From Acidobacteriota bacterium (lineage in GTDB: Bacteria > Acidobacteriota > Blastocatellia > RBC074), in NCBI GenBank assembly GCA_018269055.1, contig JAFDVI010000001.1, forward strand, positions 69,443 through 133,442: a stretch of DNA of 64,000 nucleotides, read 5' to 3'. Below the pieces are notes generated by a model. That model did not search any database and was not told where the DNA came from. It worked only from the letters and a program-made list of their open reading frames with translations. This document shows positions 13,770-63,985 of the stretch, in pieces; positions within the stretch are counted from its first letter, which is position 1, and the number at the start of each line of letters is the position of its first letter. The translations under genes were made by a program, and so were the position numbers.

Positions 13770-14054
13770 ATGACAGAAATCACTTTTGAATCCGTATATG
13801 CCCAGGCTAGTCAGCTAACGCCAAACGAACGCGCGCGGTTAATTGAAGAGTTGGCCCAGGAGTTGATGCCATCGTCCTCTCCTGTACACGAAAAACTTTC
13901 CAACCAAGAACGCCGGGCGCGTATTAGAGCATTTCGAGGCAAGTATCGAGGCAGCGTTTCTAGCGTGGATGAGTTTTTGGCCAACAAACGCCAGGAAGTC
14001 GAACTTGAAGAAGCTCGCTATCTGGCGCGTCATCCCGGAGAGGCTCTGCAATGA
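13770..14054 (+). CDS. vapB: Antitoxin (VapB/Phd-like) of a second VapBC pair
   Basis: 94 aa. A GGAGG RBS lies at 13761-13765. Its stop overlaps the ATG of the PIN gene (ATGA at 14051-14054). Confidence 0.6.
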   Translation: MTEITFESVYAQASQLTPNERARLIEELAQELMPSSSPVHEKLSNQERRARIRAFRGKYRGSVSSVDEFLANKRQEVELEEARYLARHPGEALQ

Positions 14055-20148: not shown

Positions 20149-23100
20149 TCAATTTAATCGCGGGAGTTCAATTACTACCCGTGTACCAGTCTTTTCGCCT
20201 TTGGTGCTGGTCCAGGGAATCTGAATGCTACCGCCGTATTTTTTGATTATGGCCTGCGCCTTGAGCAAGCCGCCCCCTAACCCTTCACCGCCGTCTTCCT
20301 TGGAAATGATGCCCTTGAAAAGTTTGTCCAAAACCTTTTTAGGAATGCCCCTCCCCGTATCTTCAAAGGTGATTTCCACCTTTCCGTTCTCTTGGCTGGT
20401 GGTCACAGTGACCTCTTTCCGTTTGGAGTTCGCGACTGCCCGCACTGCATTGTCAATCACAATGTCACAGGCGAACTGAAACCAATCAGGACTGATTCTG
20501 ACTTCCAGCGGGTCGCTTGGTAGCAGGTTAAGTTTGTACTTCGTCCTTTGCTCAGGGTCATTTTCCCTGCGCGTTCTGATTTGCTCAGCCAACAGGTCGT
20601 TGACCGAAACATTTGTCACCCCCTCTTCGTTGGTGACCGGCGGAGTGATCTTGTAGTCCTGAATTTTTTGCGCGAGTTCCCTGATTTTCCTGAGCTTCTT
20701 GTCCTGTTCTCTAGTCAGCTTTTTCCCGTACGGATCGTCGAAGATTTCGCCGACTTCGGCGGCAATCGTAATCGCCTTTCCCTCGATCTCGTGCCTCCAC
20801 ACTCCGCTGACCATATCCATCCAGGAAAGCTCCGTGCTCGCCTGAATCTGCACATTGGCTTCAATCAGGCTTTTGTACTTTCGGGCATTTTGAATGGCGA
20901 TGGCTGCCTGTGTCGCCAGTGACTCCAAATCCCGTTTATCTTCTTCGTCAAAGGCGTTTGGTTCCGGATGTTCCAGGTTGATTACATAAACCACTTCGTC
21001 ATCAATGATGATTGGAACCGCGAGTTCCGCTTTGGTGGCGGGGTAATATGAAAGGTAGTCCGGGTCTTTGGATACGTCCCCGACCAAATACGATCGCTTA
21101 TCGCGAACAACCCGACCAGTAATTCCGATTCGCTTGCCCGGCTCAGGATTAAGCGGGATCGGAGGATTCTCGGGCGGCGAAGTCGGATAATAAGCCTCCG
21201 CTACGGCTTCATTCCCGACGATCCGCCTGATCGCCACAAAAGCTCCTTCTTCATTGGCGAGCTTCCACATCCAGGGAATGATTTTATTGATGACTTCGCG
21301 TTCAACGAGCGTCCTGGTAATTTCCTCGCCTGCTTCGTGCAAGGTCTGCAATGCTGTAACGCGTCTCCGCAATGCTTCATAAAGGCGCGTATTTCGGATG
21401 GCAACAGCGGCTTGGTCGGCAAAGAGTTCGATGTTCCGCTGCTCATTTGGCGTAAAGTTGTGCTGAGAACGGTTATTGACGAATAGGACGCCAACCGATT
21501 CCGTGCCGAGTCGCAGCGGAACAGCCAAACAGGATTTGATTTCTTCCTCTCGGGCAAATCGTTTGTCATGAAACATCGGGTCTGATGAAACGTCATCCGC
21601 TTTCACCGTCTTTCCCAGTTTCATAATTTCGTAAACCAGGGAATTCTCGGGAACTTCATCCCCACTAGCCAACTGCTCATCCCATACGCCAACCATGGTC
21701 CGCGGCTTCCTGAAGCTATTCTTCTCCTGATCGTAAACGAACAACACAATTGGCTCACAACCCGTAGTTTCTTTCGTGCCGTGGACAATTGTATTCAACG
21801 TTGTATCCAGGTCGCCGAGCGTGGTGACTTTCGCCACGACTTTTGCCGTGTCGCGCGTGGCCTTCAACTCTTTCATCTGACGTGCATTGTCGTACGTGCT
21901 CGCCGCTTGATTGACGTAGAGTTGCAAGGACCTGAGTTCCTGGCCGGTAAAATTGTGTGGCTCGGCGTAAGCAACCCAAAGCACTCCATGCCGCCGGCCT
22001 TGAGCAAAGAAGGGCAGGCAGATCGCTGCTCTAACCCCGTGTTCGAGAAGCAGTGGATTGGTTCGCCCCGGTTGGCGTTTCAAGTCAGGGATGGCAATCA
22101 GTTGGCCGCCGCGCATGACTTCGAGCGACACGCCATTTGCTCGAACGGAACGCGTTAAATCAAGCTGGCGTCCGATTTCATCAGGAATGATTCGCAGAGG
22201 GCGATAAGTTATCTCGTCAATCAAGATAATTCCTGCAAACAGAGCCTTCGTTGCTTTGCGCGTCAGTTCGCAGATAATTTGCAGCACCTGATCGGGGTCT
22301 TGCGGCGCGACCAGTTTGTCACTGGCGCGAGTGAGCGCTTCCTGCCTGATTCGCGCTTCCTGAGTTTGCTGAAACAGATTGTGATTCTCAACCGCTACGG
22401 CCGCCGCATTGACGAAAGTCATCAGGGATTTGAGGTCTTCTTCTGTAATGGGCAAGCGTGTGAAGTTATTGTCGGCAACGACCACGCCGAAAACGTGCCC
22501 TCGCACATTAAGCGGGGCCACCACCAGTTGCGGTCCGGGCAAAAATGCTTCCAGCAACCGATCTGGCAGTTTCAGCGCCTGATCACCTTCCAAGATGAGA
22601 CCCTTGCTATGCCTGCCATCAAGGACCTCATTGAATATATCGTCCGCTGAAGGCTTGCGTTCAAACCGCAATTCCTGCACCTTCGCGCCAACCGGCGTGA
22701 GTTCGATCTTTCCCTGCTCAAGCAGCTTTGTGTAATGAAAGAAATCGTCCAGCGTAGGCGCTTGCCAATCTCGCCAAACCGTATCCGCAGAAGCATGGTC
22801 AAATTGACCTATTCCGCATTTACCGACCAATTCCCCGCGTTCGTCCAGAAGAAAGAGGGCGGCGCGATTGAACCCCAATCCGTAACCCGCCGTGACGCCG
22901 GTCAAGGTGACGTGCAGCAAGCGTTCCAACCTCTGCGCAGCGGTCAATCCTTCATCGCCAAGCATTTTTTGAATGTAAAAGCTGACCTGATGGAGCAGGT
23001 TGAGCTGCTTGTTGACCTTTTCCTTTTGCGTCCCAAGCCGTGCGTTCTGCAATGTCAGCGAGGCGCGCCCTGCCAGCCGTTCCAACATCTCCTCATCGGT

Positions 23101-25350
23101 TTCGACAAACTGCCGGCTGTCGGTGCTTCCTACAACCAGCAGATATTCAATTTGTTCGCTGGGTTTGAGCGGCACAGCCACGACGGTCTTGAAGTGAAAT
23201 TGGTCGAAAGCGTGCTCGCGCTTGTGCCACTCATCATATTCAGCCTTGAACTGCGGTCTGCCCGTGCGGATGACTTCACCAAGCAATCCCTCCACAGACG
23301 AGGGATAGATAGAAGGCAGTGTGTTTTCGGGAAAAGTTCGGCAAAGCTCCAACTCCAACTGGCCGGGGCGGCAGGCAAAGAGAAAACTATTCGAATAATC
23401 CAGCACCTCTGCCGCGTACCGCGTGATTTCCTGTTCCAGTTCCGAGACCTTCAGTCCGCCTTGAATGTGCAAAAGGGCCTTGTTCAGCTTATCCAACAAA
23501 TGGTTGCGGTATTCGGTGAGGTCGAACTGCCAAAGACGGTCAATCAGACCAGTGATCTGGTGCGCAATGGCCGTAGCTGTCGGATAATCGGTTTCGTCGG
23601 TAGCGAAGGGAAATATCCCCGCCTTCTGCACTTCGCCGAGGGTGAGCAACCCAACGATCCTGTCGTCTTTCAGCAGGGGAACCAGCATCAACGTTTGAAT
23701 GTCTTCGCTAAGCCGCAAATATCCGGCAAATTGAATCAACTCCTGCCGCCACTCGGCGTCGCTGTGGAAAATTACTTTGCACTGGTTGGTATCGAAGATT
23801 TCCCGTAACAAGGCGCAGTCAGAGATTTTCATTGGAAATCCGGAGGCCGACCTATCATCCGGCCCCAGACCTGCATCCAGGGGAACATGTGAAACCTTGC
23901 TGACCAGGGTCTGGCTGTTTTCGTTGTATAGAAAAATGCTGCAGAAACTACTTTGTAACCGTTCAGCCAGCAGCCGCGCCAAAGCATTCAACCCCTCTTT
24001 AAGCGTGGCGGCTTCGGCCATGATCCTGCTGGCCTCCGAGAGGACCGCCAGTTGAGCATCCTTTTTTTGAATCTCTGTCAGATTTTCGAAATGGCCGATA
24101 CTGCCCAGATAAGCGCCGCTGGCGTCGTGGACGTAAGCCGCTGAAAGAAGAACAGGGACAGGGCGGCCATCTTTGGTCACCAACTCGGTTCTTTCCTGTC
24201 GCACCATGTGGTCTGAAGCGGTTTCCAGCATTTTGCCGATGCGTTGGGCTTCCGAAAATTTGAGATAGAGAATTTGAACGCCTTTCCCGATCAATTCCTC
24301 TTCCGTGTAGCCCAAAATCTGCAACGCCCGCTGGTTGACGAAATTGATCTTGCCTTCGGTATCAATGGCGATCTGGCCATTGGGCGAGCAGTGATCAAAA
24401 AGAGCCAGTTTTTGTTTTTCGGCGTCCAGTTGCTGCGCCAAATCTTTGGTCTGTTGAAAGAGCGCGGCATGTCGAATAGCTATAGCGGCCTGTGTGGCAA
24501 TGGTTTCAGCAAGTCTTTGGTGTTCTTCCTTGAAATAGCCAGTTTCGCGACAACTAAAGGTGAACACTCCTATGGCTTCATCGCCGTCTTTAAGCGGCAC
24601 GAGCAAAGCGGAGCCTCGCCGTAAGACGTCATCGGCCAAGATCAGCCAGCGTGGATCGGTGGTGAAATCGTCCAGACGCAGCGACTCAGAATTATTCATG
24701 ACCCATTTTGCACAGCCGTTGGCAAGGATCATCCGCGCCTTTTCATCCGACATGGCCAGTTCGTGGCCCCGCCAATTGTGCAGGCTGCCGTCTGCCTTGA
24801 CGAGCAGTAGACTTCCTTCGTGCGCGCCAATGCTGGTGGTTGCTCGCGTGATGGTTTCCTGCAGCAGGGTTTCCAGATCAAGATGCCTGAGATTCAATTG
24901 GTCAGAAATAACGCTGAGTAATTTCAGTGTGTCGAGTTCCTTAAACAGATGATGCTGCTGTGCGGCGTGGCGGATCAAGATGGCCAGTTCTTCCGGGTTA
25001 AAAGGCTTGGCTAAATACCGGAACGCTCCTGCCTGCAAGGCCTCCAAAGCCCGCTCCATTCCCCAGCCTGTGAAGATGATTGTTTCAGTGCGCGGCGAAT
25101 GCTTTTTGATATGGCTCATCAGGTCAACGCCGGAACGGATCGGACTTTTTCCGGCGCTGGGCGCCAGCACATCATCAATTAGCGCGACGTGATAAGGAAG
25201 TGTTGCACTTGTCACAAGTTCCCAAGCCTGCTCGGCGTCAGCGGCGGCATCCACGTGATAGTCATAGTCGGTTTGCAAAAATTCAGTCAACGGTTCGCGC
25301 AGGTTTATGTCATCGTCCACCAGCAAAACCCGCAAAGGCTCGTCGCTCAT
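20149..25350 (-). CDS. Giant multidomain signalling protein: REC (with insertion) - multiple GAF domains - PAS - further GAF domains - C-terminal histidine-kinase-like ATPase (HATPase_c)
   Basis: 1733 aa. The N-terminus is VLLVDDDINLRE...ALIDDVLAPSAGKSPIRSGVDL. At least five GAF-like modules are present. The C-terminus carries the N-box IDNAVRAV and the G-boxes DTGRGIP and GGEGLGGGL. A possible H-region is VWRHEIEGK. A strong GAAGGAGGG RBS precedes it. Its ATG overlaps the stop of the upstream kinase gene (ATGA). Confidence 0.8.
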   Translation of the reverse strand: MSDEPLRVLLVDDDINLREPLTEFLQTDYDYHVDAAADAEQAWELVTSATLPYHVALIDDVLAPSAGKSPIRSGVDLMSHIKKHSPRTETIIFTGWGMERALEALQAGAFRYLAKPFNPEELAILIRHAAQQHHLFKELDTLKLLSVISDQLNLRHLDLETLLQETITRATTSIGAHEGSLLLVKADGSLHNWRGHELAMSDEKARMILANGCAKWVMNNSESLRLDDFTTDPRWLILADDVLRRGSALLVPLKDGDEAIGVFTFSCRETGYFKEEHQRLAETIATQAAIAIRHAALFQQTKDLAQQLDAEKQKLALFDHCSPNGQIAIDTEGKINFVNQRALQILGYTEEELIGKGVQILYLKFSEAQRIGKMLETASDHMVRQERTELVTKDGRPVPVLLSAAYVHDASGAYLGSIGHFENLTEIQKKDAQLAVLSEASRIMAEAATLKEGLNALARLLAERLQSSFCSIFLYNENSQTLVSKVSHVPLDAGLGPDDRSASGFPMKISDCALLREIFDTNQCKVIFHSDAEWRQELIQFAGYLRLSEDIQTLMLVPLLKDDRIVGLLTLGEVQKAGIFPFATDETDYPTATAIAHQITGLIDRLWQFDLTEYRNHLLDKLNKALLHIQGGLKVSELEQEITRYAAEVLDYSNSFLFACRPGQLELELCRTFPENTLPSIYPSSVEGLLGEVIRTGRPQFKAEYDEWHKREHAFDQFHFKTVVAVPLKPSEQIEYLLVVGSTDSRQFVETDEEMLERLAGRASLTLQNARLGTQKEKVNKQLNLLHQVSFYIQKMLGDEGLTAAQRLERLLHVTLTGVTAGYGLGFNRAALFLLDERGELVGKCGIGQFDHASADTVWRDWQAPTLDDFFHYTKLLEQGKIELTPVGAKVQELRFERKPSADDIFNEVLDGRHSKGLILEGDQALKLPDRLLEAFLPGPQLVVAPLNVRGHVFGVVVADNNFTRLPITEEDLKSLMTFVNAAAVAVENHNLFQQTQEARIRQEALTRASDKLVAPQDPDQVLQIICELTRKATKALFAGIILIDEITYRPLRIIPDEIGRQLDLTRSVRANGVSLEVMRGGQLIAIPDLKRQPGRTNPLLLEHGVRAAICLPFFAQGRRHGVLWVAYAEPHNFTGQELRSLQLYVNQAASTYDNARQMKELKATRDTAKVVAKVTTLGDLDTTLNTIVHGTKETTGCEPIVLFVYDQEKNSFRKPRTMVGVWDEQLASGDEVPENSLVYEIMKLGKTVKADDVSSDPMFHDKRFAREEEIKSCLAVPLRLGTESVGVLFVNNRSQHNFTPNEQRNIELFADQAAVAIRNTRLYEALRRRVTALQTLHEAGEEITRTLVEREVINKIIPWMWKLANEEGAFVAIRRIVGNEAVAEAYYPTSPPENPPIPLNPEPGKRIGITGRVVRDKRSYLVGDVSKDPDYLSYYPATKAELAVPIIIDDEVVYVINLEHPEPNAFDEEDKRDLESLATQAAIAIQNARKYKSLIEANVQIQASTELSWMDMVSGVWRHEIEGKAITIAAEVGEIFDDPYGKKLTREQDKKLRKIRELAQKIQDYKITPPVTNEEGVTNVSVNDLLAEQIRTRRENDPEQRTKYKLNLLPSDPLEVRISPDWFQFACDIVIDNAVRAVANSKRKEVTVTTSQENGKVEITFEDTGRGIPKKVLDKLFKGIISKEDGGEGLGGGLLKAQAIIKKYGGSIQIPWTSTKGEKTGTRVVIELPRLN

Positions 25351-40930: not shown

Positions 40931-41998
40931 ATGCGAACTCTGAAAATCTTTTTTGTCGCTGCTTTTTTAATCGCGCCGCTATCACCGGTGGTTTCATCGA
41001 AGATGACGGCGTTGATGACAAGGTTTTCAGCCAATTCTTCAACCGTTGAGGCTGCGGCGGTTTCCGATCCGAAGCAGTCCAAACCCATTGACGCTGGGCA
41101 GTATGTCGGCAGCGAATCTTGCGCCGAATGCCACGGCGGCGAAGCCACCCATTATGCGTTGACGGCGCACGCTAAAACCAAGGTATTAAATTCTCCAGTT
41201 GATAAAACCGGATGCGAAGCCTGTCACGGCCCAGCACGCGGGCACCTGGACTTTTACCTGGCCATTCAGAAACTCAACCAAGCCGGGAAGGAAGACGAAG
41301 CCACGGCGTTGATGAATGACACGGCCAAAGCCGCCGCCGCCAAATTGAACTCCTTCAAGGAAATGTCCGCCGCCCAATCCACGGCTATTTGCCTGAAGTG
41401 CCACGAAGGTTCTCAAGGGAAAAGCGAAGAGCGATTCAACTATCGTCGCAGCGAGCATTCCCGGCACGGCGTGTCCTGCAATGATTGCCATTCATCGCAT
41501 GAACCCAAGCGGACGGAATTTCTGTTGAAAGGCACGGAACCCAATCTGTGTTATCAATGCCACGCCGAACAAAAGGCGTCTTTCTCCAAACCGTTCCACC
41601 ACAAAGTTCCCGAAGGCGGAATGAAATGCTCCGATTGCCACAATCAACATGGCGGTTTTATGGGCAAATCGCTTCGCAATTCGGTTACCGGCGATGCAGC
41701 CTGCATCAAATGCCACGCCGACAAAGCGGGACCATTTGTGTTTGAACACGCACCGGTCAAAGTCGAAGGTTGCCAGGCTTGCCACACGCCACACGGTTCA
41801 ACCAATCCGAAATTGCTAACCCGAAACACAATCCGATTCCTGTGCATTGAATGCCATTCCAACACAGCCGGACTGGAGGTTGACGGAACCGGAATTGGCG
41901 GCGCGGCGACACATGACCAGTCGCAATTGCGTTATCAAAACTGCACGGCCTGTCACATTGAAATTCACGGTTCGAATAAAAACCGAGCCTTCCGCTAA
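40931..41998 (+). CDS. Decaheme c-type cytochrome (MtrA/DmsE/PioA-like periplasmic multiheme cytochrome)
   Basis: Ten CxxCH motifs in 355 aa (CAECH, CEACH, CLKCH, CNDCH, CYQCH, CSDCH, CIKCH, CQACH, CIECH, CTACH). Has a signal peptide and an AAGGAG RBS. Confidence 0.85.
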
Positions 41999-45278: not shown

Positions 45279-46916
45279 TCAATAATTCATGCCAATGATC
45301 TCACCGCGATCGTCCACATCCAGCTTGGCGGCTTGCGGAACTTTTGGCAGCCCCGGCATCAACATCATCGAACCGGCAACCACAACGACAAAGCCTGCTC
45401 CAGCGGACAGGTGGGCATCGGTCGCCGTCATCGTCCACCCCTTGGGGGCACCCAGGACTTTCGGATTGTCCGATAGTGACGAAGGCGTTTTGGCAATGCA
45501 CACCGGCAATTGACTAAAACCAAGCGCCGCGAATTTCTTCAGCTTCTTGCGGGCTTCGGAATCAAAATACACCGACCCTGCGCCATAGATTTCTTTGGCT
45601 ACGCGTTCGACTTTTTCTTCCAACCCCAATTCCGCCGGGTAAAGAGAAGTCACGGTTTCCGCATCGCTGGTGTCGGCAACGGCCATGACTTTCGCGGCCA
45701 ATTCCATCGCGCCCTCACCGCCTTTGGTGTAAACCTCGACGATGGCGCTCTCGACTTTGGCTTCGCGGCAAAATTCCTTTATCGCGGCAACTTCTTCGTC
45801 CGTATCGGTGGTAAAGCGATTGATGGCGACCACGACCGGAACTTTGTACTTGCGCAGGTTTTCCAGGTGTTTTGCCAAATTTGCCAACCCGCGCCGCAAA
45901 TTGTTCAAGCTCGTGTCATCAGGAAAATCCGCCGAACCGCCGTGCGCGGCCAAGGCTCTGGCTGTGGCAATCAACACGGCGGCAGAAGGTTTCAAGCCGG
46001 ATTTCGGCATGACCAGGTCGAAGTATTTTTCCGCGCCGAGGTCGGCTCCAAAACCGGACTCATTGATCACGTAATCCGCCAGTTTCATCGCCATCTTTTG
46101 TGAAATGACACTGCTGGTTCCGTGCGCAATGTTGGCGAATGGGCCTGTGTGAACAAACGCAGGCGTGCCTTCGGTCGTTTGCGCCAGATTCGGCATGATC
46201 GCTTCGTTGAGCAACACCATCAGCGCGCCGGTCACATGCAAATCCTTTGCGCGAATCATCTGTCCGTCCAGGTTGTACCCCAAAACGATCTCATCCAGTC
46301 GGCGACGCAAATCTTCGCGCGATTTGGCCAGCCCCATAATCGCCATGACTTCGGAAGCTGCCGTGATCACAAACCCGGTTTCGCGCGGAACCCCATTCAT
46401 TTTGCCGCCTAATCCGACGATGATATGCCGCAATGCGCGGTCGTTCATATCCATCGTGCGCGGCCAGAAGATGTTGTCCACATCAAAACGCAACTCATTG
46501 CCGTGATGCAGATGCGAATCAATTGCCGCTGCCAGCAAATTGTGCGCAGTCGTCATAGCGTGAAAGTCTCCGGTGAAATGCAGGTTGATGCGCTCTGCGG
46601 GCAACACTTGCGATTTTCCGCCGCCTGTTGCCCCGCCCTTCAATCCGAACACTGGCCCCAACGACGGTTCGCGCAACGTTACAATCGGACGTTTGCCGTG
46701 GCGCTCGATCGCCTGCGCCAGCCCGATGGAAACGACGGTTTTGCCTTCGCCGTGGCTGGTCGGTGTCATCGCGGTCACCATAATAAATTTGGCCTGTTTC
46801 GGCGATTTCCATTCGGTCAACAATTCCATTTTCAGCTTGGCCATGTGCTGGCCGTAATACACCAGATAATCATTTGGGATATTCAGTTTTTCAGCGATTC
46901 GTTTAATTGGGAGCAT
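45279..46916 (-). CDS. fhs: Formate--tetrahydrofolate ligase
   Basis: 545 aa. FTHFS motifs are PTSHGEGKTVVSIGL and GLKGGATGGG. Identity is clear over the full length. Confidence 0.9.
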   Translation of the reverse strand: MLPIKRIAEKLNIPNDYLVYYGQHMAKLKMELLTEWKSPKQAKFIMVTAMTPTSHGEGKTVVSIGLAQAIERHGKRPIVTLREPSLGPVFGLKGGATGGGKSQVLPAERINLHFTGDFHAMTTAHNLLAAAIDSHLHHGNELRFDVDNIFWPRTMDMNDRALRHIIVGLGGKMNGVPRETGFVITAASEVMAIMGLAKSREDLRRRLDEIVLGYNLDGQMIRAKDLHVTGALMVLLNEAIMPNLAQTTEGTPAFVHTGPFANIAHGTSSVISQKMAMKLADYVINESGFGADLGAEKYFDLVMPKSGLKPSAAVLIATARALAAHGGSADFPDDTSLNNLRRGLANLAKHLENLRKYKVPVVVAINRFTTDTDEEVAAIKEFCREAKVESAIVEVYTKGGEGAMELAAKVMAVADTSDAETVTSLYPAELGLEEKVERVAKEIYGAGSVYFDSEARKKLKKFAALGFSQLPVCIAKTPSSLSDNPKVLGAPKGWTMTATDAHLSAGAGFVVVVAGSMMLMPGLPKVPQAAKLDVDDRGEIIGMNY

Positions 46917-48355: not shown

Positions 48356-48683
48356 TATGTTGAATGCATTCGCAGAACAAACGCCGCGTTACAGTTGAAC
48401 TGATTGGTTTTTAGACGACAAGAAAATTCGGCGGTCGGTTTCGCGTTGGCTCAGCAATTGCCTCGTGAAGTACGTAAGTTGATATTTGCAGGGATTGGCA
48501 GAGCAGAATTCCTCAATGCGGCTCAAAATTGCGCAAACAAACGCAAGTTTTCGCAACCATTGCCGCGATCTGCTAACAAATGCTGAATGCGCGCAATCCC
48601 GACTTACAACAATTTTCAGGCGGGAAAATGCCGATTTTCTTTTCTCGCCTGGTTTCCCAGTGTTTCAAGAAAGGAAGCAGGAT

Positions 48684-49493
48684 ATGTATAAGAAACTTTC
48701 CGTGGTTTTCTTGTTCGCATTCTTTGCTGTCGTTGTGCTTTTTGGCTCTGGGGTAAAAGCCATTTCATCTCAGGACCTGCAGGCGGAATTCAAGGACAAC
48801 AATTGCGTGTTATGCCATGCCAGATTGTCCTCGCCCTATCGTCTGACCAGTCGTTATGCGGAATGGCAACTCTCGACTCATAAGGAGAAATCTGTCGGCT
48901 GCGAGAAATGCCACGGAGGTGACCCAGGAAGCAAAGATGAAAAACGGGCGCACGTCGGAATTCTTTCCCCACAGGATACTCAAAGCAAATTGCACCAGAA
49001 GAATTTGCCTGAAACCTGTAACACGTGCCATCAATCCGTCGTCAGTTCATTTACCGAAAGCAAGCATTACCAAAAATTGAAAGAGGCGGGAGTCGGACCG
49101 AGTTGTTCCACTTGCCACGTTCACATGGCCTCGCAAGTCCTTTATACTCCCGAAGAGACGGCAGCAATGTGTTCGACTTGCCATAACTCGCCGAACAAAT
49201 TGATGCCGCTCCGACCGGAAATTCCTGAAAAAGCCAACGAGGTAATGCAAGCGATTCGCCGCGCAAGTACTGTTGTGCTGTGGGCGGATCGGCTCATCGA
49301 ACAGGCTGAAGCCAAAAAGATGGATGTTCGCGACGAAAAGAAAGAACAAAAAATTGCTCGGGCGGTAATGGCTGAGGCCAAATCCAGTTGGCATGCATTC
49401 AATCTCGATGCCGTCCGCAAAAAGGCGGACGATGCCTTTGCAATGAGCACAAAAGTAAAAGACTCAGTGCGGGCAAAGCTTTTTCCCCAATAA
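48684..49493 (+). CDS. Pentaheme c-type cytochrome
   Basis: Five CxxCH motifs (CVLCH, CEKCH, CNTCH, CSTCHV, CSTCHN). Has a signal peptide. An AAGGAAG RBS precedes the ATG at 48684. The ORF-track start at 48486 is an unsupported extension. Confidence 0.8.
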   Translation: MYKKLSVVFLFAFFAVVVLFGSGVKAISSQDLQAEFKDNNCVLCHARLSSPYRLTSRYAEWQLSTHKEKSVGCEKCHGGDPGSKDEKRAHVGILSPQDTQSKLHQKNLPETCNTCHQSVVSSFTESKHYQKLKEAGVGPSCSTCHVHMASQVLYTPEETAAMCSTCHNSPNKLMPLRPEIPEKANEVMQAIRRASTVVLWADRLIEQAEAKKMDVRDEKKEQKIARAVMAEAKSSWHAFNLDAVRKKADDAFAMSTKVKDSVRAKLFPQ

Positions 49494-49538: not shown

Positions 49539-49895
49539 ATGACCAGATTCACGAGAAAAAGTATCTTTATTGTATTTGTGGCAGTGGCGTTGATCCTTAT
49601 GGCAACCACCATGACTCGCTCAACGGATGCTGCCTATTTCCAAAGCGCCAAATCGCTCTTTGCCCAAAAGTGCGCCGTCTGCCATGGCAATGATGGAGCC
49701 GGCAACACCGCCAAAGGCAAAGAAGTCAAAGCCAGAAATTGGAAAACTGACGCGGAAGTCAAAAAGATGACGGATGCCAAGATGTTGGAAATCGTCTCGA
49801 AGGGCAAAGGGAAGATGGAAGCGTACGAAAAATCACTCGGTAAAGATAAGGTGCAAATGCTCGTCACTTACAGCAAGGAATTGATGGGCAAATAA
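49539..49895 (+). CDS. Monoheme class I cytochrome c (c6/c553-like)
   Basis: A single CAVCH with a distal Met ligand region and a signal peptide. GGAAGGAG RBS. Confidence 0.8.
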   Translation: MTRFTRKSIFIVFVAVALILMATTMTRSTDAAYFQSAKSLFAQKCAVCHGNDGAGNTAKGKEVKARNWKTDAEVKKMTDAKMLEIVSKGKGKMEAYEKSLGKDKVQMLVTYSKELMGK

Positions 49896-49974: not shown

Positions 49975-50604
49975 ATGACGGGAACAACGACCATAGTTGT
50001 GGCTGTTATTCTGTTCAGCGTGTTGCTGATTGCCTGGTTGACCATCCGCCCCTCCATCACCACCACCCGTGGCGGCAAGATGTTGGCTTTTGTGGCGCTG
50101 TTGGTCTTTCCGGTTTTGGCCGGAGGCATGGGCGTCAATGAACACATTCAACATTCCAAAACCACCAATTTCTGTTTGTCTTGCCACGTGATGGAAGATT
50201 ACGGGAAAAGTCTGCACGTAGACGATCGCAGCTATATCCCGGCAATTCACTATCAGAACCATTTGGTTCCGCACGATAACGCCTGTTTTACCTGCCATAC
50301 GGATTACACGATGTTTGGCGATTACAAAGCCAAACTGCGAGGTTTGAAGCATGTATATGCGTATTACATCGGCAAACCGATGCAGCCGTTGAAATTGTAC
50401 ACGCCTTACAATAACCGCGAATGCCTGCATTGCCATTTGGGTGCACGTGGATTTGAAGAATCGGAAGCCCACACCAAGGAAGCCGATATGATGGCAAGGA
50501 TCAAGAACAACCAACTCGGTTGCACAACCAGCGGTTGCCACAGTATTGTCCACAACATCAGCAGCTTGAAAGAGGCGACGTTCTGGAAGGAGGAAGGCAA
50601 ATGA
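49975..50604 (+). CDS. NapC/NirT/NrfH-family membrane-anchored multiheme cytochrome (quinol dehydrogenase-like)
   Basis: N-terminal TM helix. Heme motifs CLSCH, CFTCH, CLHCH and a CTTSGCH variant. ACGGAGG RBS. Confidence 0.7.
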   Translation: MTGTTTIVVAVILFSVLLIAWLTIRPSITTTRGGKMLAFVALLVFPVLAGGMGVNEHIQHSKTTNFCLSCHVMEDYGKSLHVDDRSYIPAIHYQNHLVPHDNACFTCHTDYTMFGDYKAKLRGLKHVYAYYIGKPMQPLKLYTPYNNRECLHCHLGARGFEESEAHTKEADMMARIKNNQLGCTTSGCHSIVHNISSLKEATFWKEEGK

Positions 50605-53611: not shown

Positions 53612-55771
53612 TTATTTGATCGCGATTTTGAGCGTATTTGCCTGCTTGCCGTTGACCAGGACTGCAACATCAACCTCTCCACGCCCGACCAGATTGCGTG
53701 AGAGCAGAACATTAAGCTGATCCAGCCCGGCAAATGTTCCCTGCGGCCCGGCATAAAGGGCATCCGCGCTAAGTCCGCCAATCTTCATCACCACATTACT
53801 GAGAGAACTACGATTTCGCACTCCGGTAGCAAACAGAATCAGGTAGACTCGATCCGTAGCCGACCCCAAATCAATCGGCGCGGCAATGAATTGTTTCGTC
53901 TTTGCGTCATAGTTCGTGATTGGTTCGTAGCTCTGTGAACCATCCGCTCTGATTCGTAACGCCAATCCCATCAACAGGCCCTGCCCACTCGAATCCGCCG
54001 AAAAAAGTCCAGGCGCGACAGATTCGATTTGAGCCTCACCCGTCGCAACCGTTTCATTTCCGCGGAGCACCGTGATTGCGGCCTTGCCGATTGCGACGCC
54101 CGACGGAAGCTGGAAGTTGATCTGATTGGGCGAGGCGAAAAAGAGCGGCGCAAAGGATTCCGCACCTTGGTTGTCGCGGACACGGACGCGGGTCCCCGCG
54201 AGGGTCGTCGGTAAAGGTTGCGTTGCCGCAATTTCAATTGACTCTGACAATCCACCCCCGAACGCAGCCACGATGGATTCGCTGGCCAGCGCAGTTCCTG
54301 CAAAACTGGCAGCCGAGACAGGGGTAATTAAACTTGGTTTGTTGGCGCGAAAAATATACGCCGAACCTTGATCTGCATTCTCTCCAATGTCGTCGCGCTG
54401 GGTCCCCACCGCCAAAGTGTCGCCGCTCATCGCGACGGTGACGCCAAAATTATCTTCAGCATCGCCATCATTGGCGGTAAGTTTCTGTTGCTGCGTCCAG
54501 ACCGCACCGCTGCGGGCATAGACAAAGACATCGCCCTGTTCCGCATTTTTACCAACGGTGTCGTAAAAAGCGCCCACCGCTATTGCTTCGCCGCTGATTG
54601 CGACCGATGTACTGAAGTAATTATGGAACGCTCCGTCATTGGCGATCAGTTTCTGTTGCTGCGTCCACATTCCGTTATTACGGATGAACACGTATGCCGA
54701 ACCTTCACTGCCCGGGGTGTAGGAATTGTCATCCAGTACCCCTACGACAATAGTCTGACCGCTCAGCGCAACTGAAAATCCAAACCCTTGCGCCGCCGCG
54801 GGATCAATCGGGTTGAGTCTCTGTTGCTGAACCCAGCCTCCGCCGCTGCGAGCGAAAACGTAAGCCGAGCCGACAATGCCAGGCACGCCGATCCTGTCAT
54901 ACTCCGCCCCAACCACAATCGTCTCGTCGCTCATCGCGACCGAGGAACCAAAATGATCGTTGGCGACACCGTCACTGGCGGTCAGCTTCTGCTTTTGCGT
55001 CCAATTATTGCCGCTGCGAGTGAAAACGTAAGCCGAGCCTTGGACAGAGTTCATACCGATATTGTCGAACTCCGCTCCAACCACAACCGTATCTCGGTTG
55101 ATCGCAACCGCAGTGCCAAAGTATTCACTGGCTCCGCCATCATTGGCAGTGAGTTTCTGTTGCTGCGTCCAGACTCCGCCGCTGCGAACGAAGACATAGA
55201 CGGAACCCTGGTTTGCGTTCGCGACGATATCGTCAAGAAACGCGCAGACCACCACAGTATCTCCGCTAATTGCGACAGAGTTGCCGAAATAATCATCGGC
55301 CGCGCCGTCATTGGCAATCAATCTTTGTTGTTGCGTCCAAACTCCGCCACTGCGAGTGAAGACATAGGCCGAGCCTTGATTTGCCACCTGTCCAATGTCG
55401 TCGCTAGGCGCGCCGACTATTGCTGTATCTCCATCCAAAGCAATTGACCATCCCAGCGCATCTTTGGCCGCGCCGTCGCTGGCGGTCACCTTCTGCTGTT
55501 GGATGTAATTGTTCGCGCTTATGCTCTGATCCCGCGCCACTGCCACAGCCGCCGACAGCGAATCATAACCGCCGTCTGCCTTGAGCTGCCGCACAGCCGC
55601 CCTGCCGCGCAATGTGGCAGTTTGTTCCGCTTGCGCCCGGCTTGGATGGAACCATGCCGCATATAGCGTCGCCGTCGCCAGTATGGCGCAAGCCGCAATC
55701 CACCGCCGGTTGCGTGCTGTTGCGCCTGTCGCGAAAAGCCATAAGTGACTATTCTGTGTGATCAATTTCAT
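53612..55771 (-). CDS. Secreted FG-GAP/integrin-alpha-like beta-propeller repeat protein with a C-terminal TIGR03437-like domain
   Basis: About nine repeats of ...DGAA.D.FG.SVAISGDT.VVGA..DDIG..NQGSAYVF.RSGG.WTQQQKL. The C-terminus is QINFQLP...YAGPQGTFAGLDQLNVLLS. Confidence 0.75.
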   Translation of the reverse strand: MKLITQNSHLWLFATGATARNRRWIAACAILATATLYAAWFHPSRAQAEQTATLRGRAAVRQLKADGGYDSLSAAVAVARDQSISANNYIQQQKVTASDGAAKDALGWSIALDGDTAIVGAPSDDIGQVANQGSAYVFTRSGGVWTQQQRLIANDGAADDYFGNSVAISGDTVVVCAFLDDIVANANQGSVYVFVRSGGVWTQQQKLTANDGGASEYFGTAVAINRDTVVVGAEFDNIGMNSVQGSAYVFTRSGNNWTQKQKLTASDGVANDHFGSSVAMSDETIVVGAEYDRIGVPGIVGSAYVFARSGGGWVQQQRLNPIDPAAAQGFGFSVALSGQTIVVGVLDDNSYTPGSEGSAYVFIRNNGMWTQQQKLIANDGAFHNYFSTSVAISGEAIAVGAFYDTVGKNAEQGDVFVYARSGAVWTQQQKLTANDGDAEDNFGVTVAMSGDTLAVGTQRDDIGENADQGSAYIFRANKPSLITPVSAASFAGTALASESIVAAFGGGLSESIEIAATQPLPTTLAGTRVRVRDNQGAESFAPLFFASPNQINFQLPSGVAIGKAAITVLRGNETVATGEAQIESVAPGLFSADSSGQGLLMGLALRIRADGSQSYEPITNYDAKTKQFIAAPIDLGSATDRVYLILFATGVRNRSSLSNVVMKIGGLSADALYAGPQGTFAGLDQLNVLLSRNLVGRGEVDVAVLVNGKQANTLKIAIK

Positions 55772-55927
55772 TCCTTCCCCCTCTCGAACGTTGAGCGGCC
55801 AACCTATGGTCGGTCGCCGATATTTTTGTGCTTGAGTGATGCAACGCTCCCACTCAACTACACATGCGAAAACTCGAGTTCGAATTGCTGGCGAAAGGAA
55901 GTTTTTATTTGCTTGTCGTAAACAGAA

Positions 55928-57235
55928 TCACTCTGCGCTCAAATACACGTACCGTAGCACAAACAGCACAGCCAGCACGTAGACCAGCGGACTGGCTTCG
56001 CGCCAACGTCCGGTCAATACCTTCAACAGCGGGTAAAAAATAAAGCCCAGCGCCAGGCCGTTGGCGATGGAAAAGGTCAGTGGCATGGCCAAAATGGTCA
56101 GAAACGCGGGAATGGCTTCGGTGATGTCGTCCCAGTCAATGGCTTTGACGGCGCTGATCATCAGCGCGCCGACGATGATCAACGCCGGAGCCGTCGCAAT
56201 CGCCGGAATGGCTCCGGCAATCGGCGAAAAGAATGCCGCCAGCAAAAACAACACGGCAACAACACTTGCGGTCAATCCGGTGCGTCCGCCTTCGCTGACG
56301 CCGGTGGCGCTTTCGATGTATGTCACCACCGTCGAGGTTCCAAACAGCGAACCGACAATTGTCGCAATCGCATCGGCAAACAGCGCGCGATTGACGCGCG
56401 GCATTTTACCGTCAGCGGACAAATATCCGGCTTGGCGTCCCAAGCCCATCAGCGAGCCAATCGTGTCGAACAAATCCACGAATAGAAACACGAACACAAC
56501 ATCGAACAAGCCGAGCTTCAAGGCGCCGCGAATATCCAGTTGCAGAAACGTCGAGCGCCAATCCGGCAGTTGAACAATTCCCTTCGGAAGCGGAGCCAAC
56601 TTGAACGCAATGGCCGCCACCGTCACGGCCAGAATCCCGATGATGATCGCCGATTTGAATCCGCGCGCCAGCAACACGCCTGTCACCAGTAACCCTCCCA
56701 ACGACAGCAACACCGGTTTGGAAATGATGTGGCCAAGTGTGACGTATGTGTTCGGTGAGGCGACGATAATTCCGGCGTTCTTCAACCCGATAAAAGCAAT
56801 GAACAACCCAATGCCAGCGGCGACGGCGGTTTTCATCGTCATCGGAATGGCGTCCACAATCATCGCTCGAATGCGTGCCATCGTCAGAATCAGAAAGACC
56901 ACGCCGGAAATGAACACCGCGCCGAGCGCCACGCGCCAGTCGTACCCCATCACCTTGACAACCGAATACGTGAAATACGCATTCAGCCCCATTCCCGGCG
57001 CGAGCGCGAACGGATAATTGGCGATCAATCCCATCATCAGCGAACCAACTGCCGCCGCGATGCACGTGGCAAACAGCGCGCCTGAAAACGGCACGCCCGC
57101 TTCGCTGAGAATCTTTGGATTGACGAAGATGATGTAGGCCATCGTCAGAAACGTCGTGACTCCGGCGGCGATTTCCGTGCGAATGGTCGTGTTGTTTTCG
57201 CTGAGCTCGAAAACTCGTTCGAGAACATTGGTCAT
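55928..57235 (-). CDS. NCS2-family nucleobase permease (AzgA/PbuG-like purine permease)
   Basis: 435 aa, about 13 TM helices. The N-terminus VFELSENNTTIRTEIAAGVTTFLTMAYIIFVNP is typical of adenine/guanine/hypoxanthine permeases. Its ATG overlaps the stop of the upstream gene. Confidence 0.85.
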   Translation of the reverse strand: MTNVLERVFELSENNTTIRTEIAAGVTTFLTMAYIIFVNPKILSEAGVPFSGALFATCIAAAVGSLMMGLIANYPFALAPGMGLNAYFTYSVVKVMGYDWRVALGAVFISGVVFLILTMARIRAMIVDAIPMTMKTAVAAGIGLFIAFIGLKNAGIIVASPNTYVTLGHIISKPVLLSLGGLLVTGVLLARGFKSAIIIGILAVTVAAIAFKLAPLPKGIVQLPDWRSTFLQLDIRGALKLGLFDVVFVFLFVDLFDTIGSLMGLGRQAGYLSADGKMPRVNRALFADAIATIVGSLFGTSTVVTYIESATGVSEGGRTGLTASVVAVLFLLAAFFSPIAGAIPAIATAPALIIVGALMISAVKAIDWDDITEAIPAFLTILAMPLTFSIANGLALGFIFYPLLKVLTGRWREASPLVYVLAVLFVLRYVYLSAE

Positions 57236-57996
57236 TGCTTGCTCGTTTGGTTTTGGTTGGGAGTGAAGTTTTCCAGCACTGGCACGTCGTTGCGTTCCAA
57301 CAAGCGCAATGCGGCGGCGATGACTTGATGTTGTAATTCGGCGTTATTCGGTTCACCCAACGGAAAGCCCATCGGAAACGGAACCCACAACGCGCGCGGC
57401 GGTTTCAGTTGCGCTGTCACTTCGCGCAACAACGAAATCGAAACCGTCGTAATGCCTTCCCGTTCAATCGCCGCCTGTACCAGACAAACTGTCTGGCTGC
57501 ACATCGGTCAAACGGGAGTCAGAAAGGCGACATTAACGCCGTCTTCCCGCAGCATTCGCGCGACTTGCGGAGCGGTTTGTTCGATCAATTTGCCGGGGCC
57601 GACAATCGAACCCATAAAACTGAAATGCCTGTGGTTGAGTTGGCCGATGATGCCGCGCGCTTCCAGTTCGCGAAACCGGTCGAGCGGAAACACCAGGTTT
57701 GTATCGGCGGCCAAGCCCAAGTGGTCAAACGCGTAGCTGCGATGCGATTCAATCAACGTTTGCGCTTCAATCGCAGTAGGAATTTCGCGGAATGTCGAAT
57801 CGCCCCTTTTGCTGGAATGGTCAAAACCACTTTGCTCCGGCGTTCGCAATCCGGCAGTTGTCACCAACGCCACGCGAGTTTCGTTGAGCGGTTTGCCTAA
57901 CTTCGCGCACAATCCCGGCTCAATTGCGTAGCGCGAAAACGGATAACCCTTCATAAACAGCCTGACGTGAAGGCTCAGATCGTTGTAAGTTGCCAT
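57232..57996 (-). CDS. Candidate selenoprotein with an in-frame TGA (Sec) at 57508-57510; tentatively a GrdB/PrdB-like reductase B family member
   Basis: Two adjacent same-frame ORFs (57508-58089 and 57232-57504) are separated only by TGA-CCG. Read through, they give ...VAFLTPV-U-PMCSQTVC..., a UxxC redox motif. A SECIS-like hairpin begins 11 nt downstream. The 5' end is uncertain: ATG at 57996 or GTG at 58089. Confidence 0.55.
57480..57496 (-). promoter_or_regulatory. SECIS-like stem-loop in the mRNA, 11 nt 3' of the in-frame UGA
   Basis: mRNA reads UGA-CCGAUGUGCAG-CCAGACA-GUU-UGUCUGG. A 6-7 bp perfect stem with G/U in the apical loop. The spacing matches bacterial SECIS elements such as fdhF. 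Confidence 0.5.
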
Positions 57997-58138
57997 GTTG
58001 ATTCTGATGAGTGTGGCGGAACCTTGTCGGCGGAATTGTACGCGATGCCGTTGCAAGTCCAAATGCTTGCTTGGCCAAATGGTGTACACTTAAGCGGAGC
58101 TTGGGTGCCCTACTTTTCTTTTGTCTTTTTTTGTTTTT

Positions 58139-60415
58139 ATGAGCAAAACTCTTCTGGCAGCAATTCTGATTTCAGCCATCGCATTTTGGCAACCGCCACC
58201 GGCTCACTCACAAGAAGCCGCAACGCAACAACCTGTTCCCATTGAGCGAATTTTGATTGATGCGTATGACGCCGCGCACGTCAACGGGCTGGTGTTCATC
58301 ACGGGGCAACAAAACGTGGTTGAGCAAAATTGTTTCGGCCTCCGTTTTCTGGTTTCCAACCCAAACGGCGTGGAAGTCAGTCCCAGCAAATTCGATCTAG
58401 GCCAGCATGCGCCAGACGGCAAGTTTGCGCGCGTCAGTTGGCAACCTCAATTCGATCCGCAAACGACAGTCACCTTGCGCTGGCATCGCGAAGGCAAACG
58501 ACTGGTTGTCGGGCAGGTGTCGGCTTCGGCAAACATCCGATTGACGATTGAAGCCTATCGCCCCTGGAGCAATGCGCACGACGAACAAAGCTGGGCGGTG
58601 TATTCCACGCCAAAAGACAATCGCACGATTCTGGGCGAACAAGTCCATAACCGGAAAATTCAGGTTCCGCTCAATCGCTTTCTGCTGAAAACCGACCGCG
58701 CCGCCATCGGCAAACCCGACCAGGGCGAAAATGCGAATGTTCCGCTTCCTTCTCCTAATGCTTTGCTGGTTTTTGACCTGACTCCGAATTCGCCCGTGGG
58801 ATTTGTCGCCGCCGTCGGCGAAGAGTTCCCGGCGATTGAAAGCGAAACTGAAAAACTGTCCTCTCATTCCGCCGCCGAACTTTTGGACAAAGCTGAAAAA
58901 GAATATGCGGCAATTGGTTCGGCTTCAGGTGGCGCGCTGGGCGACGGCGTTGAAGCTATCACGCGAATAACGATGTGGAATCGTTATTACTCGCCAGGCC
59001 AGAGATTTGAATACGTGACGCCACATCGGTTTTCCGGATCGGGAATGCGCGGTGACGTGCTGGGCGAAGATTCTTTGCTGATGTCCCTGTTGACCGGATT
59101 GACCAACGGCGAAAGCGCCTCCGCCAGTTTGAAAATTCTGTTGGCAGGACAAACTGCGGATGGGCGCATTCCGCTTCGCAGGTATCAGCAATCGGAAGCG
59201 GCGGGCGAACCGCCGGTGCTGGCTGGACGCTCCCTGCCACCGTTGGGAGCGCTGGCCGTGTTCAAAGTGTATTTGGAAACACAGGACGTGGCATTTCTGG
59301 CCTGGGCGTATCCGCATTTGCAACAATGGAATAATTGGTGGCACGCCAACCGCGGCGACAATCAACAATGGCGCGACGGCAATCGCGACGGATTGTTGGA
59401 AAACGGATTCGATGCCGAACTCGAATACGGCGCGATGGGCGCTCAATCATTGAGCAACCTAAAAAAACTGCAAATGGCTTTGGCGGAAGCGGAACTTTCA
59501 ACCAGCGAGGCAAAATTCAACGACGAAACGCACACGTTGACGATGTCGCCCGTGGCGCTGAATTCCCTGTATGCGCTGGACACGGAGTTGATGGCGTTGA
59601 TTTCGCGTGAAATCGGATTGACAACTGAAGCCGACCGCTGGCAGGCGCGTTACGATGAAATCAAACGGCTGATTAACGACTACCTGTGGAGCGAAGACGA
59701 CAAGCTGTATCTTGACCGGCATTGGGACGGGAAGTTTTCCAGCCGCAGAGCGCCGGATTTACTGCTGCCTCTGATTGCCGGGATTCCGGATCAACCGCGC
59801 GCAAAACTGCTGATCGAAACGATGTCCGGCTCCAAAGAACTGTCCGCATTGAGCGATGCAGAACATGCCGCCATCGGCTATCTGGTTTATCTGGGAATGA
59901 AGCGGTATGGATTTGAAAAACAAGCTTCACAACTGGCACAACAAAATTTGAAGGCGGCTGGCGCCACCAACCCTGGCGCAATGAATCCGTTGCGCGCGGC
60001 GTTTTGGCCTTTGCTGTATTTGCCCGCCACCGAAGAATTGCTTTCCGCAGATCCCTGGTTCGGGTTGACCTTCGGGAATTTGAATGCGACCGAAGAAGCG
60101 CACATTGATCGGTTGAAAATCGCTGGAGCAAGTTTTGATGTCACAATTGGCCCGAAACGCACCGTCATACGCCGCGACGGCAAGGTAGAAGTGGAATTTG
60201 AAGGGGCGGTCAAATTGCGCGGGTATCGAAGCAATGACCGCGTATTGTCTTGTTTGGTAGAAACCAAAACGGAAGTTCGCACGACAATTCCCGGCGAAGA
60301 AGGCAAGAAAATCACGGCCTCAGTGGACGAAAAGGTTTTGGGAAGCGCTTCGGTCGGCTCAGGAGCAAGTTTCAAGATCAGAGAAGGCAGCCACAAACTG
60401 CTGGTCGTCAAATAA
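58139..60415 (+). CDS. Secreted six-hairpin (alpha/alpha)6 glycoside-hydrolase-like protein (GH63/GH37/MGH1-like)
   Basis: Has a signal peptide. Trp/acidic-rich segments such as WNNWWHANRGDNQQWRDGNRDGLLENGFD are typical of GH63-like barrels. The ATG at 58139 is preferred over the TTG at 58121. Confidence 0.5.
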   Translation: MSKTLLAAILISAIAFWQPPPAHSQEAATQQPVPIERILIDAYDAAHVNGLVFITGQQNVVEQNCFGLRFLVSNPNGVEVSPSKFDLGQHAPDGKFARVSWQPQFDPQTTVTLRWHREGKRLVVGQVSASANIRLTIEAYRPWSNAHDEQSWAVYSTPKDNRTILGEQVHNRKIQVPLNRFLLKTDRAAIGKPDQGENANVPLPSPNALLVFDLTPNSPVGFVAAVGEEFPAIESETEKLSSHSAAELLDKAEKEYAAIGSASGGALGDGVEAITRITMWNRYYSPGQRFEYVTPHRFSGSGMRGDVLGEDSLLMSLLTGLTNGESASASLKILLAGQTADGRIPLRRYQQSEAAGEPPVLAGRSLPPLGALAVFKVYLETQDVAFLAWAYPHLQQWNNWWHANRGDNQQWRDGNRDGLLENGFDAELEYGAMGAQSLSNLKKLQMALAEAELSTSEAKFNDETHTLTMSPVALNSLYALDTELMALISREIGLTTEADRWQARYDEIKRLINDYLWSEDDKLYLDRHWDGKFSSRRAPDLLLPLIAGIPDQPRAKLLIETMSGSKELSALSDAEHAAIGYLVYLGMKRYGFEKQASQLAQQNLKAAGATNPGAMNPLRAAFWPLLYLPATEELLSADPWFGLTFGNLNATEEAHIDRLKIAGASFDVTIGPKRTVIRRDGKVEVEFEGAVKLRGYRSNDRVLSCLVETKTEVRTTIPGEEGKKITASVDEKVLGSASVGSGASFKIREGSHKLLVVK

Positions 60416-63576: not shown

Positions 63577-63691
63577 TTTGATGAGTCAGTTTCCTTTTGA
63601 TAAATGAGGGTTGATCGTCCAGAATTGGTGCGCAATTGGTGAGGCTGCTAGCCAATCCGGATTCCGCATTCTGCAATCTGAAATCGAATTT

Positions 63692-63985
63692 ATGCAACTG
63701 GCTCGGGTCAAAGGAACCGTCGTTTCAACCATAAAAAATTCAACGCTGACGGCGCGAAAACTGATGGTGATTCAACCATTGGATGGAAATCTGAAAGCTT
63801 CGGGAAAACCGATGGTCGCAGTGGATTCCGTGGGCGCGGGCGCGGGGGAATTGGTGTTTTGGTGTCGCGGTAAAGAAGCCAGCTTTCCGTTTGAAGGCAG
63901 TGAAGTCCCGACCGATTGCACCATCGTCGGCATTGTGGATTCCGAAGCGCACGTAAAGGCCATCGCAACAGGAGGCAAGGCGTGA
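63692..63985 (+). CDS. Bacterial microcompartment vertex protein (EutN/CcmL/PduN family)
   Basis: 97 aa (MQLARVKGTVVSTIK...KLMVIQPLD...MVAVDSVGAGAGELVF), the EutN/CcmL fold signature. The Met at 63692 is preferred over the ORF-track start at 63611. No obvious RBS. Confidence 0.65.
   Translation: MQLARVKGTVVSTIKNSTLTARKLMVIQPLDGNLKASGKPMVAVDSVGAGAGELVFWCRGKEASFPFEGSEVPTDCTIVGIVDSEAHVKAIATGGKA

Follow-up and report, generated by a model that had tools for sequence, protein, structure and literature searches.

A PrdB-like gene with an in-frame TGA

We analyzed a 64,000-nt stretch of genomic DNA from an Acidobacteriota bacterium (contig JAFDVI010000001.1), hereafter called the window, which carries on its minus strand a gene related to that of the D-proline reductase protein PrdB. 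The reading frame of this gene is interrupted by a TGA codon at positions 57510..57508, and the TGA is followed in the same frame by CCG ATG TGC AGC CAG ACA GUU UGU CUG G. A first-pass annotation, made from the letters alone, had described two open reading frames (ORFs) of the same frame split only by TGA-CCG, with a UxxC motif appearing on read-through, and this arrangement is indeed present on the minus strand. Translation across the TGA gives ...AFLTPV-U163-PM-C166-SQTVC..., where U stands for a putative selenocysteine (Sec), and the predicted read-through peptide spanning the Sec site is FLTPV-U-PMCSQTVCLVQAAIER. The sequence also contains, exactly 11 nt past the UGA, the CCAGACA/UGUCUGG hairpin that had been pointed out, and the overlap between the stop codon of the gene and the start codon of a downstream permease gene is seen as ATGA. 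The features of the locus are as follows.

57232..57996, minus strand: coding sequence of the predicted PrdB-like selenoprotein, from the read-through translation; 254 codons plus stop, with Sec as codon 163
57508..57510, minus strand: in-frame UGA, the putative U of the UxxC motif U163-P-M-C166; marked by TGA in all loci, the Cys column, and the PrdB alignment
57480..57496, minus strand: SECIS-type hairpin (SECIS, selenocysteine insertion sequence); marked by its fold, covariation, consensus structure, and loss in Cys homologues
57232..57235, minus strand: ATGA overlap of the selenoprotein stop TGA (57234..57232) and the permease start ATG (57235..57233), from the sequence and the ORF list
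55928..57235, minus strand: downstream purine permease of the NCS2/AzgA type, from the Pfam family Xan_ur_permease and the identity to AdeP

The gene had originally been given the span 57232-58089. Its end, the TGA at 57234..57232, holds, and its beginning has to be moved. The ORF opens at a GTG at 58089 and contains an ATG at 57996 in the same frame, and because the homologues all begin with MATY..., the ATG at 57996, not the GTG, is the likely start codon. A promoter and terminator scan of 55700..58300 returned nothing informative. On the comparative evidence described in the next sections, we consider it highly probable that one gene spans the locus and encodes a selenoprotein of 254 residues from the GrdB/PrdB superfamily, with the UGA read as Sec and the hairpin as its SECIS element.

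Comparative evidence for a selenocysteine codon

A scan of one genome per species yielded 318 relatives, of which the best 80 loci, mostly titled Blastocatellia, Pyrinomonadaceae, or Acidobacteriota, were kept; counts out of 81 refer to these loci plus the window. In the 80 loci, the tblastn matches span the TGA and cover residues 1 to 244 or more. Three trends were apparent in this set. First, the internal stop codon is TGA in every case (81 out of 81), whereas the terminal stop codons of the orthologous genes are mixed, with 42 TGA, 24 TAA, and 13 TAG. Second, the sequences on the two sides of the TGA show the same pattern of change. The differences at the first, second, and third codon positions were 0.209, 0.119, and 0.494 over the 60 codons before the TGA and 0.249, 0.140, and 0.518 over the 70 codons past it, with amino acid identities of 77% and 75%, respectively. 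Because these codon-position patterns match, the parts before and after the TGA appear to evolve as one coding frame. Third, the Met located two codons past the TGA is replaced by a Thr, Phe, or Leu codon (giving PTC, PFC, or PLC) in 17 of the 80 loci, which would leave a separate downstream gene with no start codon conserved across the set.

Protein homologues provided a further line of evidence. A database search with the window protein returned 1,620 homologues, and nearly all of the top ones are exactly 162 amino acids (aa) long, ending at the TGA. A handful of full-length homologues (245 to 253 aa, 51 to 56% identity) have Cys at the position of the U, in the context VPV-C-PMC, as would be expected if the first-pass annotation had placed the Sec correctly. 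The Cys at this column (VPVCPMCNQ) was found in P0014, P0019, P0020, P0023, P0024, and P0108 and in many 50%-cluster representatives. Trp occurs at the site in only one product, JGI protein P0001, where the TGA was translated under a genetic code in which it stands for Trp. In addition, when the window protein is aligned to PrdB, which had been suggested as a check, the in-frame TGA codons of the annotated PrdB genes of Terrisporobacter and Peptoclostridium acidaminophilum fall in the same column as the window TGA. The Cys homologues and the column shared with annotated PrdB genes both support the assignment of the TGA as a Sec codon, and the TGA at 57510..57508 very probably encodes selenocysteine.

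A conserved hairpin downstream of the UGA

In the fdhF-type bacterial SECIS, a hairpin lies directly 3′ of the UGA, carries G-U in its apical loop, and is bound by SelB. The hairpin in the window consists of a 7-bp stem, CCAGACA (57496..57490) paired with UGUCUGG (57486..57480), closed by the loop GUU, and the loop is 17 to 18 nt from the UGA. The core that is conserved among the relatives is slightly shorter, consisting of 6 bp (57496..57491 with 57485..57480) and a 5-nt loop with an invariant G-U.

The conservation of this structure was analyzed with an ungapped alignment of 80 sequences and 90 columns. The RNAalifold consensus of these sequences contains one helix, formed by columns 30-35 with 41-46, and the loop bases G37 and U38 are invariant. 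When all seven pairs of the hairpin were considered, 91.3% of the cells were paired, compared to 17 to 46% when the 3′ partners were slid. The covariation score was 0.271 versus 0.122 ± 0.011 in shuffled alignments, and none of the 500 shuffles reached the observed value. Compensatory changes were found at three core pairs. At pair 30:46, the most variable example, CG occurs 33 times, GC 15 times, and UA 13 times, and its two bases are the synonymous third position of one codon and the first position of a codon for Val, Leu, or Ile. At pair 33:43, GC is found in 71 sequences and AU in 7, and at pair 34:42, AU is found in 74 and GC in 6.

The distribution of the hairpin follows that of the putative Sec codon. 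The Sec forms of Binatia, Verrucomicrobia, and Kryptonia have a hairpin at the same position, in the form of CAGGC/GCCUG, and the hairpin is not formed in the Cys homologues L081, L083, and L085. The proposal that it is a SECIS element is thus borne out by a structure that is conserved with compensatory changes, kept in other phyla, and lost in Cys forms, and these comparisons support the view that the hairpin acts as a conserved bacterial SECIS-type element. It resembles the fdhF-type SECIS in lying within the coding sequence, 11 nt past the UGA, and in its invariant loop G-U and compensatory stem changes. It differs in that the stem in the window is short (6 to 7 bp), no bulged U is evident, and no Rfam model matches it.

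Predicted structure and a possible mechanism

An AlphaFold2 model of the Cys homologue P0019, built from a 24-sequence alignment, was confident, with a predicted local distance difference test score (pLDDT) of 91.4 and a predicted template modeling score (pTM) of 0.91. The modeled fold is alpha/beta and Rossmann-like, and the CxxC is predicted to lie after strand 154-158, at the start of helix 162-177. A CxxC or UxxC between a strand and the start of a helix is the usual setting of redox-active motifs.

A possible sequence of events can be drawn from these data. The UGA at 57510..57508 would be decoded as selenocysteine, as the comparative data suggest, and the hairpin 11 nt downstream would bring SelB and its Sec-tRNA(Sec) to a ribosome paused at this codon. 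In the finished protein, by analogy with D-proline reductase PrdB only, the selenol may serve as the nucleophile and Cys166 as the resolving thiol. The two would then form a selenenyl-sulfide that, again by analogy, may be re-reduced by a dithiol donor.

Search for Sec machinery and other observations against the Sec assignment

Several observations weigh against the interpretation of this locus as a selenoprotein gene with its own SECIS. First, no gene for Sec synthesis or insertion was found nearby. The 64-kb window contains no tRNA genes, and none of the 46 long window ORFs scanned with Pfam (out of 47) is SelA, SelB, or SelD. Likewise, tblastn searches with the Escherichia coli SelA, SelB, and SelD proteins gave no match on the window and 85 related loci, ARAGORN predicted no tRNA-Sec on 60 related loci, and no sel genes were present among the Pfam-annotated genes of L096, a 10-kb Logan contig with the exact 162-aa product that reaches ∼4 kb past the window. 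In total, neither the window nor the ∼1.3 Mb of related loci, which represent flanks of up to 10 kb and not genomes, yielded a selA, selB, selD, or tRNA-Sec gene. Selenoproteins have been reported in Acidobacteria (PMC1794560).

Second, the hairpin is modest when the window is taken alone. The z score of a 76-nt fold was −1.96, and 9 out of 200 shuffled sequences folded at least as well. Third, the stem is not uniformly kept among the relatives. Its loop-closing and outermost pairs are imperfect, being unpaired in 35 and 14 of the 80 sequences, respectively, and the conservation of the stem is partly due to conserved codons (Q-T-V-x-L). Fourth, Rfam searches of the whole window at gathering score and of the locus at E values up to 10 returned no SECIS or other RNA family. 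Finally, a sequence search of PDB gave no relative with a solved structure on which to check the active site, and the chemistry proposed above is drawn by analogy only.

The downstream permease and the gene neighborhood

The gene that overlaps the end of the selenoprotein gene had been called an NCS2 nucleobase permease. Its product matches Pfam Xan_ur_permease (E = 3.3e-47) and shares 48% identity with E. coli AdeP along its entire length, which identifies it as an NCS2/AzgA-type purine permease. In the window, its gene is probably cotranscribed with the selenoprotein gene. The same zero gap, the ATGA overlap, occurs in L002, L003, L004, L006, and L007. Beyond these loci the association loosens. 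A permease gene follows the selenoprotein gene in 32 of the 80 loci, all of them close relatives (∼70% identity or more), and the two genes lie 0 to 1472 nt apart, in some cases separated by a GNAT gene. In roughly these loci, a divergent glycoside hydrolase is also conserved. When the ORFs of all 80 loci were clustered, no conserved neighbors emerged other than this lineage-restricted glycoside hydrolase and the permease. The genes found next to the selenoprotein gene in other sublineages encode, for instance, an E1 dehydrogenase, a 3′-5′ exonuclease, a metallophosphoesterase together with a BNR protein, RecX together with a methyltransferase, an M1 peptidase, or VanY. M20 peptidases, an integrase, and radical SAM proteins are also among the unrelated neighbors in the other 48 loci and in other phyla, and the Cys forms and the Sec forms of other phyla have still other, unrelated neighbors. 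Judged by gene order, the permease overlap is local to a single sublineage of Blastocatellia and does not characterize the family as a whole, and the ATGA overlap is best explained by operon packing specific to that lineage.

Two functional interpretations of the permease were considered. In the first, the PrdB-like branch, which is common in soil and marine bacteria, would be a distinct, PrdA-independent enzyme that one Blastocatellia lineage recruited together with an adenine/hypoxanthine-type permease, and it would carry out the selenium-dependent reduction of an imported nucleobase-like compound. This we regard as quite unlikely. The second, put forward in the first-pass annotation, is that the selenoprotein represents a selenium-dependent step in purine or nucleobase metabolism that is functionally coupled to the permease. 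The ATGA overlap with an AdeP-like permease in the window and five close relatives, and the permease downstream of the gene in 32 of the 80 loci, would fit such a coupling. However, the adjacency occurs only in the closest relatives, the gap is variable and at times occupied by another gene, and the remaining loci, including those from other phyla, have unrelated neighbors. Because the adjacency is limited to close relatives and the neighbors elsewhere are unrelated, the inference of a role in purine metabolism is unsupported, and we consider it quite unlikely.

Bacterial microcompartment (BMC) genes were also noticed 5 to 6 kb from the PrdB-like gene. They encode EutN/CcmL vertex proteins and lie at 63611..63985 on the plus strand of the window and at 3050..3615 in L096. 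Two Cys-form homologues of another lineage adjoin PTAC and BMC shell proteins (L081, 13815..16741; L083, 5586..6902), and the microcompartment stretch of L081 also includes an acetate kinase. The proximity of microcompartment genes to the PrdB-like gene may be coincidental.

Relationship to PrdB and GrdB

The resemblance to GrdB and PrdB proteins that had been sensed in the N-terminal part of the product was confirmed by profile searches. The protein scored 33.2 bits with Pfam GRDB (PF07355), above the 22-bit gathering cutoff, and thus belongs to the superfamily by this threshold. The match pairs residues 35-160 with profile positions 221-345 of 347 and ends three residues before the Sec. The best NCBIfam match was D-proline reductase PrdB (TIGR04483; E = 5.4e-41), with 140.6 bits, which does not reach the equivalog cutoff of 300 bits. 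The models for "various selenoprotein B" and for GrdB, GrdF, and GrdH (TIGR01918, TIGR01917, NF040794, and NF040795) all scored below their cutoffs, with 45 versus 65.45, 40.8 versus 602, 55.3 versus 800, and 48.5 versus 775 bits, respectively. In a tblastn search against plasmids, annotated prdB genes were found at 33 to 38% identity, and prdB of Terrisporobacter, which served as a control, adjoins prdA.

Given these similarities, the gene might encode a true PrdB subunit of D-proline reductase (or the corresponding subunit of a glycine, betaine, or sarcosine reductase) whose pyruvoyl partner (PrdA or GrdE) is encoded at another locus. Its best NCBIfam match is PrdB, its residues 27-239 share 38% identity with annotated PrdB, the Sec falls in the same TGA column, the UxxC motif and the overall length are similar, and JGI uses the name "D-proline reductase (dithiol) PrdB." Nonetheless, there are clear differences. 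The PrdB score is far below the equivalog cutoff, and even the more general selenoprotein B model is missed (45 bits against 65.45). The motifs also differ, with SHGG, IGFMGG, and AG-U-GTC in the PrdB proteins of Terrisporobacter and Peptoclostridium and SHRS, FSFMGS, and PV-U-PMC in the window protein. Furthermore, no prdA adjoins the window gene, unlike the case in Terrisporobacter. The Pfam scan of the window ORFs found no PrdA, PrdC, PrdD, PrdE, GrdA, or GrdE, nor did one occur among those neighbors that recur or have a Pfam annotation, at distances of up to 10 kb, in the related loci, which come from several phyla. A true PrdB is therefore very unlikely.

The likeness to GrdB, GrdF, and GrdH (PF07355, TIGR01918) is confined to their C-terminal half, where the window protein matches positions ∼220-425 of 431-435. 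Those proteins are ∼430 aa long at full length, and the window protein has no counterpart of their N-terminal ∼220 residues and scores below their NCBIfam cutoffs. Unlike GrdB systems, the window gene has no grdA, grdE, grdC, or grdD nearby. By these sequence comparisons, the protein falls outside the canonical subunits of D-proline and glycine reductases. Its place is in a PrdB-like branch of stand-alone proteins that occur widely among environmental bacteria.

Other readings of the in-frame TGA

A full-length product could also arise if the UGA were read through as an amino acid other than Sec, by an opal suppressor, by a tRNA-Sec-like tRNA-Cys (selC* or an allo-tRNA), or by near-cognate Trp decoding. 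Allo-tRNAs, which are tRNA-Sec-like suppressors, have been reported from Acidobacteria, and selC* tRNA-Cys has been reported from other phyla (PMC5389517). Such decoding would also agree with the Sec machinery not being seen in the window and the related loci, of which only flanks were covered. The hairpin, however, with its canonical SECIS spacing and its invariant loop G-U, argues for SelB-dependent decoding, and the pairing of Sec and Cys forms, together with annotated PrdB genes, is the classical signature of a selenoprotein. In addition, TGA is a normal stop codon in this DNA. Of the 47 long ORFs in the window, 15 end in TGA (a further one extends past the window edge), the PrdB-like gene itself is terminated by TGA, and the "W" of the JGI protein P0001 is, as described above, a TGA translated with another code. 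We consider non-Sec read-through highly improbable.

Two genes, one for a 162-aa GRDB-domain protein that truly ends at the TGA and one for a 90-aa protein that starts at the ATG two codons on, are what NCBI, JGI, ENA, and Logan calls suggest (160- to 162-aa products and then 77- to 90-aa ORFs), and an ATG does follow the TGA in the window, but this arrangement deserves almost no credence in view of the uniform internal TGA (81 out of 81) versus the mixed real stops, the substitution of the Met in 17 of the 80 loci, the single continuous ORFs of the Cys homologues, and the in-frame TGA of annotated PrdB genes at the same column.

Family breadth and annotation

The family to which the window gene belongs is large. 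A search with the Cys form returned 3,270 proteins, including Sec-type truncations of 160 aa in Verrucomicrobia, Binatia, and Kryptonia. When 50%-identity representatives were searched exhaustively with HMMER, 2,039 matches were obtained at E values up to 1e-3 and 751 at E values up to 1e-10, and these are a mix of ∼160-aa fragments, full-length Cys forms, and ∼400-aa forms with an extension that has no Pfam match. Among the Cys-form proteins P0243, P0244, P0251, P0255, and P0308 (∼390 to 420 aa) and P0340 (495 aa), some have such a C-terminal extension of ∼150 aa, without a Pfam match, and one has an N-terminal HTH_3 domain; neither addition was informative.

Neither the family nor its UxxC Sec site is new. 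In the Sargasso Sea, where 42 of its genes were counted, "proline reductase PrdB" (pfam07355, UxxC) ranked third in abundance among selenoprotein families (PMC1088965), and in the Global Ocean Sampling (GOS) data, 235 of its members had Sec and 110 had Cys (PMC2398784). The window gene fits this environmental family. Compared with the PrdB family of Zhang and Gladyshev (Sargasso Sea 2005, GOS 2008), it has the same Pfam domain, the UxxC motif, and a length of ∼250 aa, and in both cases Sec forms outnumber Cys forms and the carriers are non-Stickland environmental bacteria (PMC1088965, PMC2398784). The likeness is to the published description of that family, which was drawn from marine metagenomes and a few genomes (Anaeromyxobacter, Geobacter), whereas the window comes from a soil or freshwater Blastocatellia. 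The window gene adds a member to a known family and points to neither a novel recoding mechanism nor a novel protein family. In the loci covered, the PrdB-like branch has no PrdA partner and no conserved neighbors, and it is among the most abundant environmental selenoprotein families.

Public gene calls split the gene systematically. Among the top 120 matches of each search (1,620 and 3,270 proteins), most are fragments of 160 to 162 aa (P0002-P0120 and P0139-P0234; in the window, 57508..57996), often named "D-proline reductase (dithiol) PrdB," and a small separate ORF of 77 to 90 aa follows the fragment in the loci examined. As a result of this split annotation, selenium use in Acidobacteriota and other soil phyla is understated. 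The lineages named in the record titles as carriers, for example, Pyrinomonadaceae and Aridibacter, may offer culturable strains.

Some of the related loci come from metagenome-assembled genome records with other titles, namely "uncultured Heliomicrobium sp.," "Heliomicrobium sp.," "Heliobacteriaceae," and "Clostridia" (L001, L003-L005, L011, L012, L019, L030, L043, L046, L064, and L065). Several of the Heliomicrobium- or Clostridia-titled loci are like Blastocatellia loci, with up to 91% identity to the window protein and shared neighbors. Because of this resemblance to Blastocatellia-titled loci, the organism names of those records look unreliable.

Other observations in the window

Only one other in-frame TGA candidate in the window has a real ORF on both sides. 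A hybrid histidine kinase gene (20149..25350, minus strand) encodes 1,733 aa with REC, PAS, several GAF, and HATPase domains and ends with a TGA at 20151..20149, and it is followed in the same frame by an ORF for a 123-aa receiver-domain protein (19762..20133, minus strand). It was rejected as a recoding site, since the kinase has a normal C terminus and the receiver is a second gene with its own ATG, which is preceded by a purine-rich stretch.

Two PIN-domain (toxin-like) genes are located at 5604..5999 on the minus strand and at 14051..14455 on the plus strand. Directly before the latter is a 114-aa ORF without a Pfam match, which is possibly an antitoxin. Finally, multiheme c-type cytochrome genes with paired CXXCH motifs, NapC/NirT-like and cbb3-type, are found on the plus strand at 40931..41998, 48486..49493, 49539..49895, and 49975..50604, and a formate-tetrahydrofolate ligase gene (45279..46916, minus strand) lies among them.

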